A stretch of DNA of 64,000 bases. Source: a plasmid. The stretch lies in NCBI RefSeq assembly GCF_056712565.1, contig NZ_JBWXXM010000002.1. The stretch is one strand, 5' to 3'. Under the pieces are notes generated by a model. It worked only from the letters and a program-made list of their open reading frames with translations. It had not been told where the DNA came from and made no database searches. The translations under genes were made by a program, and so were the position numbers. Within the stretch, counting starts at the first letter, position 1, and the number at the start of each line of letters is the position of its first letter. This document shows positions 41,718-45,983 of this stretch, in pieces.

Positions 41718-41924
41718 ATGACTGAAGAACAAAAAAGAATAGAGCGGGCTATTGAGTTGGCTTGTCGTTACGGCGGAACCGATGAAATGCATCATCTGCA
41801 ATGGGTCGTGGATCAGATGGTAAGAGAACTTGCTGGAGAACGTTATGCACAGATTGTAGCTGATGCCACCAGCGGAGAAGATGGGCCTGATACTTACAAA
41901 TGGAGTGTTGGGATCGCGCCTTAA
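41718..41924 (+). CDS. hypothetical small protein (68 aa)
   Basis: ORF with GAGGA RBS. Confidence 0.4.
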   Translation: MTEEQKRIERAIELACRYGGTDEMHHLQWVVDQMVRELAGERYAQIVADATSGEDGPDTYKWSVGIAP

Positions 41925-42025
41925 CAGCTGTCGGTCTGGGGGTGAAAACGTATTCTTCATTCAGCGAATTCCCAGGCTTCACATTAAGACTAAAGCGGCG
42001 GCCGCAGTAACGTAAGAGAAAATAA

Positions 42026-42436
42026 ATGGCTATTTTAGCAATCATTGCAGTTATCGCCCTGGGTGGGTACGCCTACGGATTTATTAAAACCCGTGAGCTG
42101 AGCGCTTTGCGTAAAGAAATGAAACTATACGTGGATCGCATGGAAGCGGCGGAGCTGGACTTACACGCAATCAGAAGTGTAGCGGAGCACCGGTTGCACG
42201 GTGCAGGTAAACAGTTTGCCGACCTTTACAGCCGTATCGACGGTGCAACTGTGACGCTGACACCCGAAGATCAGCTGTTACTGGCAACGATGCCATTTAA
42301 TATTCAGGATGTAGAAGACATCGTAAACGAGCGCGGTCCAAAGACAATTAGCGGCCGTCCATTCTGGGAAGTTGAGCCAGGCCCGCATGATTATGAATAT
42401 GGCCCGCAATATCCGTATTTCCCAGACCAGCGCTAG
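42026..42436 (+). CDS. hypothetical membrane-anchored protein (136 aa)
   Basis: N-terminal TM helix MAILAIIAVIALGGYAYGFI. Confidence 0.45.
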   Translation: MAILAIIAVIALGGYAYGFIKTRELSALRKEMKLYVDRMEAAELDLHAIRSVAEHRLHGAGKQFADLYSRIDGATVTLTPEDQLLLATMPFNIQDVEDIVNERGPKTISGRPFWEVEPGPHDYEYGPQYPYFPDQR

Positions 42437-42448
42437 GAAGAGATCAAG

Positions 42449-43264
42449 ATGAGAGAGCCAAGACCACGCCATACCTTGCAGGTCATTCGTGTACCTTCTC
42501 TGGAGGTTCAGGACCTGGGGCTGACCAGCTTTGATAGCTGGCTTGACGAGCACGGGTATGACAAAACGAATGCCAGAAATAACCGTACCATCTGGGCGAG
42601 AGAAGGCGGATGGCATCTGAAACGTTGCAGAAATCTTGAAACTGGCACGGACGATTTCTGGTTTATCGCTTTCGATGGTAAAGGCGGGAAGATTTACCCG
42701 CTGAAAACCCAAAGAGACTACCGGGCTGCATATCGTAAGCTGGAAGCAGAAGGTTATGCGCCTGCGGTCATCGAGCAAATGACCACAGGCGCAGCATATA
42801 ACCTGGCCTATCCACGTTCCATCCTAAAACAAGCTGAGACGGCCACCAGCGAGCCAATTCGGAAACCTGACGTAGATATCCAGGGTGAGCACTGCGAGCG
42901 CGTAGTGACGCAACGTAGTGGCGTGGCACAGGGTAAATTCAAAGCTCTGCTCATCGAGAATTTCGCAGGCCGTTGTGCGGTAACCGGTTGGGTTAATGGA
43001 GGTGTCCTGGATGCGGCACACATTGAACATGGAACCCGGTACAATCCGTCTAATGGCATCCTGATGACTCCAACAATGCATGCGCTGTTTGATGCCGATC
43101 TTATGGGCATAGATCCGGCCACCCTGACCGTTCATTTTAAGCCAGGCATTGAGGTGGGCGAGCTGTTTGAAGGCCGTAAAATCACACCGCTGGTGTACGA
43201 TCTGGACTTAGAGCGGCTGGCCGTACGCTGGGCAGAATACCAGGGCCTTGCTCAGGACCAATGA
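42449..43264 (+). CDS. HNH-nuclease domain protein with unknown N-terminal domain
   Basis: C-terminal CAVTGW...LDAAHI...NGILMTPTMHALFD (HNH_2-like). Confidence 0.6.
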   Translation: MREPRPRHTLQVIRVPSLEVQDLGLTSFDSWLDEHGYDKTNARNNRTIWAREGGWHLKRCRNLETGTDDFWFIAFDGKGGKIYPLKTQRDYRAAYRKLEAEGYAPAVIEQMTTGAAYNLAYPRSILKQAETATSEPIRKPDVDIQGEHCERVVTQRSGVAQGKFKALLIENFAGRCAVTGWVNGGVLDAAHIEHGTRYNPSNGILMTPTMHALFDADLMGIDPATLTVHFKPGIEVGELFEGRKITPLVYDLDLERLAVRWAEYQGLAQDQ

Positions 43265-43517
43265 AGGGTGACAGCCAGGTTGTGCCTAAACCTGGCAGTA
43301 AAACCTGCATGCCACAAACCTTTAAATTCTGACTCAAGAGCCTGGCACAAGATAAAAGCGAAATGAAAAGGTTAAAACCGGTGCACCAGACCTCTTAGGT
43401 TTAATACCTGAGCCAGTATACTGGCAGTCTCAGGTAAGTGGGTATCATACACTTCAGAAATATCCACACCGAGATAACCGCAACAGTTAAAGAGCTAAAA
43501 AGGACGGTTTTAATTTT

Positions 43518-43943
43518 ATGAATAAAACAGCTTTAATTATGATTCTGGGAATCCTCGGATGTGGTAAAGCATTTGCAGCCACTGAATTACAGCTCCAGCA
43601 AAAACGCGTTATGCATTTCTGTGCCAATGCCAGCCTTCCGTTGTTGATTGCCGGTACAACTTATGCGAATACGTCTGACAATGGACGACCAGAAAAAGAA
43701 AGAGTGGCAATCCTGAAAAATTCAGTTGCAAGCTCGACAGCTTATAAAATGGCATCTCCCGGAGTTCAGATGGCCATGATGAGCGTGGTGGAAGATATTG
43801 CCGATCCGAAAGAATTAGCTCTACATCAAAAAGAAGTTAGACGTCTTGGGGCTAGTTATCTTTCCGACAGCGGTGTTTCATGGGCTTCAAAAACTGTTTC
43901 ACCATTTACAGCTTGGTGTAACTTTAACCGTTTAGAAAGTTAA
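43518..43943 (+). CDS. hypothetical lipoprotein
   Basis: signal peptide with lipobox ILGC. Confidence 0.45.
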   Translation: MNKTALIMILGILGCGKAFAATELQLQQKRVMHFCANASLPLLIAGTTYANTSDNGRPEKERVAILKNSVASSTAYKMASPGVQMAMMSVVEDIADPKELALHQKEVRRLGASYLSDSGVSWASKTVSPFTAWCNFNRLES

Positions 43944-43969
43944 GGCTGGCAAGGCGGTTCCTGTTCAGG

Positions 43970-43980
43970 AAAGTTACTTT
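43970..43980 (-). repeat. AAAGTAACTTT motif copy 7 (downstream of lipoprotein gene)
   Basis: plus strand reads AAAGTTACTTT. Confidence 0.6.
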
Positions 43981-44491
43981 CCGTGCGGGGACCGTAAGAT
44001 ACAGATAAAGCTTAAGGCCTTTGAATTTTTGGAAAGCATTTGAAAATTTCATTGCGCTTGTCTGATATGAAACAGCCCCTGCATTTCTGCAAAGGCTGAA
44101 AGAGTGTGTACGGACTTTGGAAGGAGTGATGATATACGCCTGAGCCATCCCATCACCGCAGACAGGGTAATTAACCCTGACTAAAGCTTTCACCTATTCC
44201 GTCGCTCGCAAGCGGCTTTCGCACACTAACGAAGGTATGGCCTTTCGTCGGTGTTAAATTTTTCAAACTTTGCTTACTTTGTCAAGGAAGGTGACCGCAG
44301 TAGCAGGCACAACTACTTTAATCTGTATGAATAATAAGGTAGAACCGGCCAGTGAATGAATGCTTACCCTGAAATCAGGCGGACAACCTTCAGGAATATT
44401 GATAGCAAGACTGAATCTCTCGCTGCGGCGATAAACATTTCGCCATAACCCTGAACGAGAGTGGTTCATCCATCATATACAGGAGCGTTAC

Positions 44492-44800
44492 ATGCGCAAA
44501 TTTAAGTACATAATCTGTCACCAGTGCGAAGGCCACGGGACCATGGAAAACCCGGCCTTTGAAAATGGATTCACCCAATCAGAAATGGCTGAGTGGGAGC
44601 CAGAAATGCGTGAAAAGTATTTTGCCGGAGCATTTGATGTTCGCTGTAACGTTTGTGCCGGTGACGGTAAGCTCAGCGTACCAAACGTAGCGGCTATGTC
44701 TTTTTCAGAACGACGGGTTCTGGCAGCACGGCGGCGTGATGAGCGTCTTCAGGCTGCTGATGAACGGCTGTCCCGCCAGGAACGAGCAATGGGGTACTGA
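44492..44800 (+). CDS. hypothetical zinc-ribbon protein (102 aa)
   Basis: CHQCEGHG...CNVCAGDG; AGGAG RBS. Confidence 0.45.
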   Translation: MRKFKYIICHQCEGHGTMENPAFENGFTQSEMAEWEPEMREKYFAGAFDVRCNVCAGDGKLSVPNVAAMSFSERRVLAARRRDERLQAADERLSRQERAMGY

Positions 44801-44815
44801 GGTGCTACAGCAAAG

Positions 44816-45673
44816 ATGAAAATGACGAAGCCAAAACCGGTAAGCCGGATGAAAAGACCGTTTATTAGTGAGCTTGCAGAGCTGGGTTTATCGGGTGAAA
44901 TTCTTTCAATTCGAACTGACGGCATGCAGGGGACGCTCATACCCGATCTTACCGCAGGGGTGAGTGAAGCAGGCCGTGTGAAAACCGGCAACTGGGTAAT
45001 CTCTGACAAGAGAACCTTCGACCATGTCGTTCTGTGTGTTGAAAGACAAGATGAGAACCATGATGTGTACGTAGGTAAATTCATCCAGTTACATGTAGCC
45101 GCTAATAAGAGCCTTAAGATCGTCGAAATGGGCGATGTGAAACTGGTGGCCATAACCAGCTCGATTCCTACCACTTTTAATGGTGGGATAAAGAGATACA
45201 AAGGGGTTACGTATGTGTCACTTTCCCAAACAGCTCAAACCACTATCGACTTCCCGAAGCGTATCTACAAAGAGGGCCAGGAATGTACTTCTGTCACCAG
45301 TCCTGACCAAGGTCCTTTCGCCCGGGATGTTAGGTTGAATTGCTACGGGCGATGTGTTGTCACCGGCGTAAGGTCCCCCTGGCGTACTGAGGCCGCGCAC
45401 TTAACGCCACGTCATGAAGAAGGCATTCCCGACGTAACGAACGGAATTTTACTTCGCCGTGATATCCATACACTGTTCGACAATGACCATTGCGCCATAA
45501 ACCCTGACACTATGAAAATTTACTTCAGCCGGGAGGCCCGGGAGTTGGATGATGATCTCCTGAAATGGCATGGGAATGAGATAGAGACGACACGCATGCA
45601 GGTTCCGGTTAACATCGAAAACCTTCGGATACGATGGCAAAAATTTAAGGCTAAGGATCGTCAGCGTAAATAA
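44816..45673 (+). CDS. HNH-nuclease domain protein, paralog of 42449..43264 product in HNH region
   Basis: C-terminal CVVTGV...EAAHL...NGILLRRDIHTLFD; different N-terminal domain. Confidence 0.6.
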   Translation: MKMTKPKPVSRMKRPFISELAELGLSGEILSIRTDGMQGTLIPDLTAGVSEAGRVKTGNWVISDKRTFDHVVLCVERQDENHDVYVGKFIQLHVAANKSLKIVEMGDVKLVAITSSIPTTFNGGIKRYKGVTYVSLSQTAQTTIDFPKRIYKEGQECTSVTSPDQGPFARDVRLNCYGRCVVTGVRSPWRTEAAHLTPRHEEGIPDVTNGILLRRDIHTLFDNDHCAINPDTMKIYFSREARELDDDLLKWHGNEIETTRMQVPVNIENLRIRWQKFKAKDRQRK

Positions 45674-45734
45674 AGCCATAAGCTGAACCACGGCGAGGAT
45701 TAGTCTTGTTCACTAAATGACAGCGAGAGATTAA

Positions 45735-45983
45735 ATGCAAACCCAAAAAGAAATTACAGTTGGCCAGATCTGGGAAGAAGTGGATCCAAGACTGATCCGG
45801 AAAGTGCGGGTTGTTGAGGTGGCCTCGTTAGAAGGGCCCAAAGGCATCCTAATCGAAAACGTGGAGTCTGGTCGTAAGAACTGGGCGTCGTCATCCCGCT
45901 TTAATGGAAAGCGTGGAGGGTATCGTCTTATTTGGGGTCAGTTTGGATATCGAAAATTATTGTACGTTAAGGCTATTTTTTGA
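45735..45983 (+). CDS. hypothetical small protein, 3' end replaced by Tn3-family inverted repeat
   Basis: ORF runs into IR beginning at 45934. Confidence 0.3.
45934..45971 (+). repeat. Tn3-family 38-bp terminal inverted repeat
   Basis: GGGGTCAGTTTGGATATCGAAAATTATTGTACGTTAAG; tnpA stop lies inside it. Confidence 0.7.

Follow-up and report, generated by a model that had tools for sequence, protein, structure and literature searches.

Two HNH_2 nucleases with unrelated N-terminal domains on the IncHI plasmid backbone as candidate Type IV restriction enzymes

The DNA analysed here is a 64,000-nucleotide stretch of a plasmid contig (NZ_JBWXXM010000002.1, RefSeq assembly GCF_056712565.1; the whole stretch is called the window below), and our subject is the gene cluster at positions 41718-45983, in which seven open reading frames (ORFs) follow one another on the plus strand in the order A, B, HNH1, C, D, HNH2 and E. 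HNH1 and HNH2 encode the two HNH nucleases with which most of this analysis is concerned. All seven ORFs were found where a preliminary description of the region had placed them; RefSeq annotation on identical plasmids covers six of the seven, and ORF E is annotated on plasmid pEC-IMPQ. At 100% identity, the region is part of the backbone found in p14EC029b and other large conjugative IncHI2 plasmids. On that backbone the cluster lies downstream of the tellurite genes terZABCDE/terF and of hipBA, and in IncHI2 plasmids without the local transposon it is followed by the plasmid hns gene on the opposite strand. In the window it sits between hipBA and a Tn3-family end, as first described (Table 1).

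Both HNH proteins are, on sequence grounds, bona fide members of the Pfam HNH_2 family (PF13391). The motif recognized at the outset (C-x-V-T-G...A-A-H...N-G-I-L...H-x-L-F-D) is present in both and is invariant or nearly so in the two family alignments: C176, H191, N202, H211 and D215 are invariant among relatives of HNH1, as are N209, H218 and D222 among those of HNH2, where C180 and H195 are kept in at least 90% of sequences. Searches of the PDB with the single HNH1 or HNH2 sequence gave no match. With family profiles the only match was VcaM4I (6yex), at an expect value (E) of 4.8e-8 for HNH1 and 1.4e-5 for HNH2, in alignments that take in the ββα-Me core and some or all of the linker between the domains. 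VcaM4I residues H224, N241, D250 and D254 align, in that order, with the predicted catalytic residues of each protein, and the mutants H224A, D250A and D254A of VcaM4I impair its activity (PMC7897488). All four positions are conserved in both families, contrary to the concern that the motif might lack catalytic residues, although the second metal ligand, D250 in VcaM4I, is a histidine in HNH1 (H211) and HNH2 (H218).

The two nuclease domains are related only at a distance. BLASTP aligned about 176 C-terminal residues of HNH1 and HNH2 with 27% identity (E 1e-12) and found nothing between their N-terminal parts, and profile-profile comparison of the N-terminal domains (hhalign) returned a probability of 0.3%. 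The C-terminal domain of HNH1 is 51-60% identical to that of otherwise unrelated enterobacterial proteins of 424-472 amino acids (aa; P0020, P0022, P0023, P0025 and P0027), compared with only ~27-30% for HNH2. As judged from these comparisons, the nuclease domains are distant members of one family and not recent duplicates, and the N-terminal domains are unrelated. The preliminary description of a paralogous pair with different N-terminal regions was therefore right about the N-termini and about the shared HNH_2 domain, but the kinship it implied is remote. In a phage collection, matches were confined to the C-terminal domain. Proteins of Salmonella phages SeKF_80 and 7-11 (H76-H78, ~86616-87171) match residues 77-266 of HNH1, past the HNH core on its upstream side, and one of them, from SeKF_80, is annotated as a ParB-like partition protein; the HNH1-type nuclease module may thus be joined to another N-terminal domain in phages.

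The N-terminal domain of HNH2 (HNH2-N) had no match in Pfam, NCBIfam or PADLOC and no significant profile match in the PDB. Its relatives are few: searched exhaustively with HMMER, a set of 1.84 billion cluster representatives yielded only 30 clusters (50% identity), made up of ~270-aa fusions to HNH_2 nucleases and of standalone proteins of ~115 aa. One fusion (P0176) joins this type of domain to a different HNH_2 subtype. A standalone homologue of 117 aa (P0175, L013:557-1605) lies tightly between two small ORFs (116 and 109 aa) of a short metagenomic contig, in a phage-like arrangement of genes. Across an alignment of 26 sequences only M1, G58 and W60 are invariant, with T34, V71 and F121 nearly so; W60 and F121, together with the tryptophan of an 'SNW' motif in distant relatives, are candidate aromatic residues of a base pocket. 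The AlphaFold2 model of HNH2-N is a confident all-β structure, with a mean predicted local distance difference test score (pLDDT) of 81.7 and a predicted template modelling score of 0.76. Modified-base readers dominate its fold matches. The highest score, 5.8, was obtained with CMoRE/PD-T4-3, an enzyme specific for 5-hydroxymethylcytosine (5hmC), followed by AF2351 (5.0), PH1033 (4.8), the Mmi1 YTH domain and the Leishmania protein 2ar1 (4.5 each), an ASCH domain (4.4), VcaM4I (4.3), THYN1 with 5-methylcytosine (5mC) DNA (4.1), YTHDC1 and YTHDC2 (3.9-4.1), the McrB N-domain with m5C DNA (4.0), and AbaSI and SUVH5 SRA (3.2-3.3). We take PH1033, 2ar1 and 2gbs to be EVE-type structures. In a Foldseek comparison with AFDB50, nearly all proteins with this fold either carry an HNH endonuclease annotation or consist of the fold alone. 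With moderate confidence, we interpret the modelled HNH2-N as a divergent PUA-like reader domain.

The N-terminal domain of HNH1 (HNH1-N) is harder to place. Among 5.8 billion proteins, a profile search recovered close enterobacterial relatives, many truncated fragments and nothing else, and no significant match was found in Pfam, NCBIfam, PADLOC or PHROGs. AlphaFold2 modelled it poorly (mean pLDDT 53.8): a small α/β core reaches to about residue 100, and a disordered linker follows. Neither N-terminal domain matched a housekeeping function in the library scans, a type of match that the preliminary description had named as speaking against its sensor proposal.

Table 1. Features of the HNH cluster and its immediate surroundings (positions in the window; residues where so marked).
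Feature	Position	Strand	Description
hipB-hipA (98 + 441 aa)	40031-41657		Complete type II toxin-antitoxin pair directly upstream of the cluster; conserved on IncHI2 backbones
ORF A (68 aa)	41718..41924	+	Hypothetical protein WP_000134171; weak phrog_23179 match, E 6e-4
ORF B (136 aa)	42026..42436	+	N-terminal hydrophobic anchor (by inspection); no family match
HNH1 (271 aa)	42449..43264	+	N-domain, linker, VcaM4I-type HNH_2 nuclease
HNH1 N-domain	residues ~1-103, 42449-42757	+	Orphan
HNH1 linker	residues ~104-148	+	Predicted disordered
HNH1 HNH_2 core	residues 176-222, 42974-43114	+	PF13391, E 1.5e-6
HNH1 catalytic residues	H191, N202, H211, D215		Predicted by alignment with VcaM4I
ORF C (141 aa)	43518..43943	+	Predicted secreted protein/lipoprotein; signal peptide with lipobox-like LGC and AFA|A
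ORF D (102 aa)	44492..44800	+	Two CxxCxGxG motifs (zinc-finger-like, by inspection); strong AGGAG ribosome-binding site
HNH2 (285 aa)	44816..45673	+	All-beta N-domain, linker, VcaM4I-type HNH_2 nuclease
HNH2 N-domain	residues ~15-140, 44858-45235	+	All-beta, predicted PUA-like reader fold (AlphaFold2 model)
HNH2 HNH_2 core	residues 180-229, 45353-45502	+	PF13391, E 3.3e-12
HNH2 catalytic residues	H195, N209, H218, D222		Predicted by alignment with VcaM4I
ORF E (66 native residues + 16-aa tail from transposon end)	45735..45983	+	Native form 67 aa
38-bp terminal inverted repeat	45934-45971	.	Tn3-family (GGGGTCAG...ACGTTAAG); ends IncHI2 backbone homology
TnpA C-terminus-like ORF (234 aa)	45957-46661	-	Tn3-type; overlaps next TnpA-like ORF
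TnpA N-terminus-like ORF (155 aa)	46522-46989	-	
Serine recombinase/resolvase-like ORF (213 aa)	47115-47756	+	

The interpretation that we favour, at somewhat better than an even chance, is that HNH1 and HNH2 are independent sensor-linker-HNH nucleases of the VcaM4I design and probably Type IV restriction enzymes. This reading is moderately strong for HNH2, and weak for HNH1, where it comes from analogy with VcaM4I. VcaM4I, TspA15I and CmeDI are EVE(PUA)-HNH modification-dependent restriction endonucleases (PDB 6yex; PMC7897488, PMC6765204), and the domain order and sizes of HNH2 mirror those of VcaM4I (EVE 1-147, linker 148-178, HNH 179-309). Like enzymes of that type, HNH1 and HNH2 are stand-alone genes, with no cognate methyltransferase at the loci examined. 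Unlike them, they form a plasmid-borne tandem pair; HNH1-N and HNH2-N have no detectable sequence similarity to EVE and no Pfam match, and HNH1-N is not demonstrably PUA-like. Two points weigh against the interpretation: the PUA-like assignment of HNH2-N comes from one predicted model with no sequence-level support, and the model of HNH1-N yielded no reader-like fold that would place it in the PUA superfamily. The original proposal of sensor-plus-HNH enzymes acting in modification-dependent restriction thus fares well for the VcaM4I-homologous nucleases, with their intact catalytic residues, and for the predicted reader of HNH2, but less well for the sensor of HNH1.

If the analogy with VcaM4I holds, each HNH protein would dimerize through its HNH domain and stay inactive as long as its sensor domain had not bound some feature of foreign DNA, which for HNH2 would most likely be a flipped modified base. 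The activated nuclease would then cut nearby and so restrict phages or incoming DNA bearing the mark. The usual hosts of IncHI plasmids are generally Dam+ and Dcm+. Because of this, neither Dam (G6mATC) nor Dcm (C5mCWGG) methylation is a probable target, and likelier ones are modifications of the phage type, for example 5hmC or glucosyl-5hmC.

Several characterized enzymes provide comparisons for this design. The SRA-HNH Type IV enzymes ScoA3IV/Sco5333, TagI and MsiJI likewise combine a PUA-superfamily reader with an HNH nuclease, as does ScoA3V, a distant PUA-HNH enzyme that prefers N6-methyladenine (PMC6765204). CMoRE (PD-T4-3), the best fold match of HNH2-N, is a Type IV enzyme that acts specifically on 5hmC and glucosyl-5hmC (PDB 9u75; PMC12923530). 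However, its nuclease is GIY-YIG and not HNH, the nuclease is N-terminal and the reader C-terminal, the reverse of the order in HNH2, and sequence identity to HNH2-N in the aligned region is only 12%. A systematic screen for PUA-HNH proteins sought recognized PUA or DUF3427 sensor domains (PMC6765204); since HNH2-N has no Pfam match, that screen would presumably have missed its family.

The alternative that survives best, although we think it fairly unlikely, is that HNH1 and HNH2 are modification-independent HNH_2 endonucleases (solitary Type II/IIS-like enzymes, nicking enzymes, or agents of plasmid-plasmid or plasmid-phage competition) whose N-terminal domains read sequence or structure. 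The HNH_2 family (His-Me finger group 6, COG3440) includes the Type II enzymes HphI and BbrI, whose recognition domains are unassigned (PMC5714182). The lack of a reader-like fold in HNH1-N also favours this alternative, as does the pairing of the same C-terminal domain with other N-terminal modules in some phages, exemplified by the ParB-like-annotated SeKF_80 protein. However, HphI/BbrI-like Type II members recognize unmodified sequences and have cognate methyltransferases, whereas no methyltransferase was annotated or detected by Pfam near the HNH genes in the window or in L001, L002, L006, L009, L011, L012, L015 and L016, and an unprotected sequence-specific cutter would be lethal to its host. 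Moreover, among solved structures both nuclease domains have their closest homologue in an enzyme that depends on modification, and the fold matches of HNH2-N are mostly modified-base readers.

A second alternative, which we consider doubtful, is that the pair has no present role, being neutral or decaying cargo that persists on the backbone only through linkage to a successful plasmid. Only 437 of the 1396 plasmids that match the cluster anywhere contain at least 80% of it in one piece, and breakpoints recur across plasmids, some of them inside HNH1. In pEC-IMPQ a mer (mercury-resistance) transposon splits HNH1 (L017:3012-3892) and leaves a 119-aa, C-terminal, HNH-only fragment annotated as a coding sequence; the databases hold many truncated HNH1 fragments. 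Resistance transposons land in the cluster repeatedly. On the IncHI1A plasmid L016, a deletion of ~500 base pairs (bp) has cost the HNH2 homologue half of its reader domain (L016:6924-8088 compared with L012:5295-6876), leaving a protein of 236 aa without the first ~70 reader-domain residues, and this truncated form (cluster P0134) occurs on at least 1000 contigs.

Against decay stand the patterns of conservation. We compared the cluster with that of a 97%-identical IncHI2 lineage (L015). HNH1 differs there by 15 synonymous and 8 nonsynonymous changes, a ratio of nonsynonymous to synonymous divergence (pN/pS) of 0.17; ORF C differs by 14 and 9 (pN/pS 0.19), which indicates from sequence that it is a real gene under purifying selection, and ORF B by 3 and 2. 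The synonymous divergence (pS) of HNH1 and ORF C between IncHI2 lineages is 0.08-0.15. In ORF D, HNH2 and ORF E taken together there are two nucleotide differences in total, none of them in HNH2, whereas the intergenic stretches 41925-42025 and 43265-43517 are ~17% divergent. The region is thus a recombination mosaic, and the contrast suggests that part of the cluster was replaced by recombination. In addition, the catalytic residues are invariant in relatives down to ~24-45% identity, full-length genes are kept from IncHI1-type to IncHI2 plasmids at 53-83% protein identity, and accessory defence genes, too, are typically lost often. A metagenome contig (L012) and a plasmid typed as IncHI1A (L016) also carry the HNH genes as a tandem upstream of hns, with other genes lying between the two; HNH1 there is 79-83% and HNH2 ~53% identical to the proteins of the window. 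This tandem arrangement is a conserved feature of the IncHI1/IncHI2 backbone, and at the same time an accessory and dispensable one, since transposons hit it often; such dispensability is common for defence cargo. In the restriction model, it would be an accessory cargo module of IncHI plasmids.

The preliminary description also raised the possibility of toxin modules with small partner proteins, in which the HNH proteins would be toxins and ORFs B, C, D and E their immunity, antitoxin or delivery partners; we find this improbable. The gaps between ORF B and HNH1 (12 nucleotides) and between ORF D and HNH2 (15 nucleotides) are short, and from its position ORF B is probably co-transcribed with HNH1. 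HNH_2 domains are known in polymorphic toxins and effectors (PMC5714182, group 38; SitA toxin paper), and the hipBA toxin-antitoxin module lies next door. The small genes themselves look as they were first described: B has an anchor, C a lipobox-like LGC, and D its two CxxCxGxG motifs. However, none of them is kept beside homologues of the nucleases. A tblastn search with ORFs A-E against the loci of HNH1 and HNH2 relatives found no homologue even at E<1, so the check on neighbourhood conservation that had been proposed turned out against a partnership. ORF A has no homologue in L009, L011, L012 or L016 and is not kept with the HNH genes outside IncHI2; ORF B is absent beside the HNH1 homologues in L002, L012 and L016, and ORF D beside the HNH2 homologues in other loci. 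In the position of ORF C, the IncHI1-type loci L012 and L016 carry a non-homologous lipoprotein of 135 aa (LTGC lipobox). Scans of NCBIfam, PADLOC, PHROGs and Pfam gave no significant match for any of ORFs A-E; for ORF D, the Pfam DnaJ_CXXCXGXG (E 1.1) and NCBIfam anti-TRAP (E 0.079) matches fell short of significance.

Elsewhere the nucleases occur as solo genes. A 42%-identical HNH1 homologue (L002) stands alone beside an XRE-type regulator gene and adjoins a P4-type integrase, with Lamassu-like genes nearby, and a 46%-identical HNH2 homologue (L006) is a solo chromosomal gene in Leclercia. In the latter case an ASCH-domain gene (PUA-like superfamily; L006:5212-5622) lies 380 bp upstream, which may be a coincidence or may reflect a related reader function. 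The toxin reading also meets the difficulties that ORF C is predicted to be secreted, the wrong compartment for a nuclease immunity protein, that library scans found no secretion, Rhs or other delivery domain in the N-termini, and that the linker could auto-inhibit as in VcaM4I, which would make an immunity protein unneeded. With no conserved A-E partner and no adjacent methyltransferase, neither the toxin-plus-partner nor the Type II restriction-modification reading is supported. From sequence comparison, ORFs A-E are bystander backbone genes and not conserved partners, and a description of HNH1 and HNH2 as self-contained single-gene enzymes fits best.

In L011 (1-6855), a complete terZABCDE operon and a terF-like vWA gene are followed after ~150 bp by an HNH2 homologue of 41% identity. 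This position echoes that in IncHI2; it could mean that the region has a common origin or that ter clusters and this nuclease family are functionally linked. We did not adopt a functional link with the ter operon: the ter genes and the cluster are separated here, by ~7 kb (in L001 the ter end is near locus position 4548 and the cluster start near 9119), and other relatives of HNH2 have no ter genes.

At its downstream end the cluster meets a Tn3-family element, which had been thought to truncate the last gene. Homology to the L015 backbone runs only as far as window position 45933. The insertion swaps only the last codon of ORF E and adds a read-through tail, so that the gene is not really truncated; the tail matches the end adjoining a Tn3-family transposase gene in L009. 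The native ORF is annotated on pEC-IMPQ as WP_001194554. The element itself (45934-47756) looks degenerate; its TnpA C-terminus-like and N-terminus-like ORFs overlap, suggesting a large internal deletion.

No RNA gene was found across the cluster with Rfam, including the conserved 548-bp gap between ORFs C and D, and promoter and terminator scans of the cluster did no better than on shuffled sequence. The gap (43944-44491) contains no annotated gene. It is 0.5% divergent between IncHI2 lineages, compared with ~17% in the neighbouring intergenic regions, and a rearrangement breakpoint recurs within it at ~44264 in many plasmids. Its minus strand has a promoter-like site at 44285-44258 and a terminator-like site at 44098-44073.

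The literature that we searched held no functional data on these IncHI genes and nothing linking IncHI plasmids to them. HNH2-N is a predicted, previously unclassified reader domain, while the principle of coupling a sensor to an HNH nuclease is already known and brings no conceptual surprise. A more far-reaching proposal, which we put forward tentatively and think less likely to be right than wrong, is that HNH2-N founds a new, rare PUA-like reader family for a mark other than those of Dam and Dcm, for example a hypermodified phage base. Together with the orphan sensor of HNH1 it would form a two-specificity, single-gene Type IV barrier on IncHI1 and IncHI2 plasmids that shapes their acceptance of phages and foreign DNA, and a role as free reader or decoy would fall to the standalone ~115-aa homologues.

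IncHI2 plasmids have a major part in carrying multidrug-resistance genes. Resistance to macrolides, mercury and beta-lactams is encoded on those seen here, and there is a report of mcr-1 on an IncHI2-typed isolate (PMC5748712). If two active modification-dependent nucleases are encoded on this backbone, the phage susceptibility of the host could change, which would be relevant to phage therapy, and compatibility with incoming methylated DNA, and hence plasmid ecology, could be affected. HNH1-N would be a wholly unclassified sensor on a VcaM4I-type nuclease, and the PUA-like superfamily would gain in HNH2-N a new family of readers, possibly one whose base specificity is new and useful as a tool.

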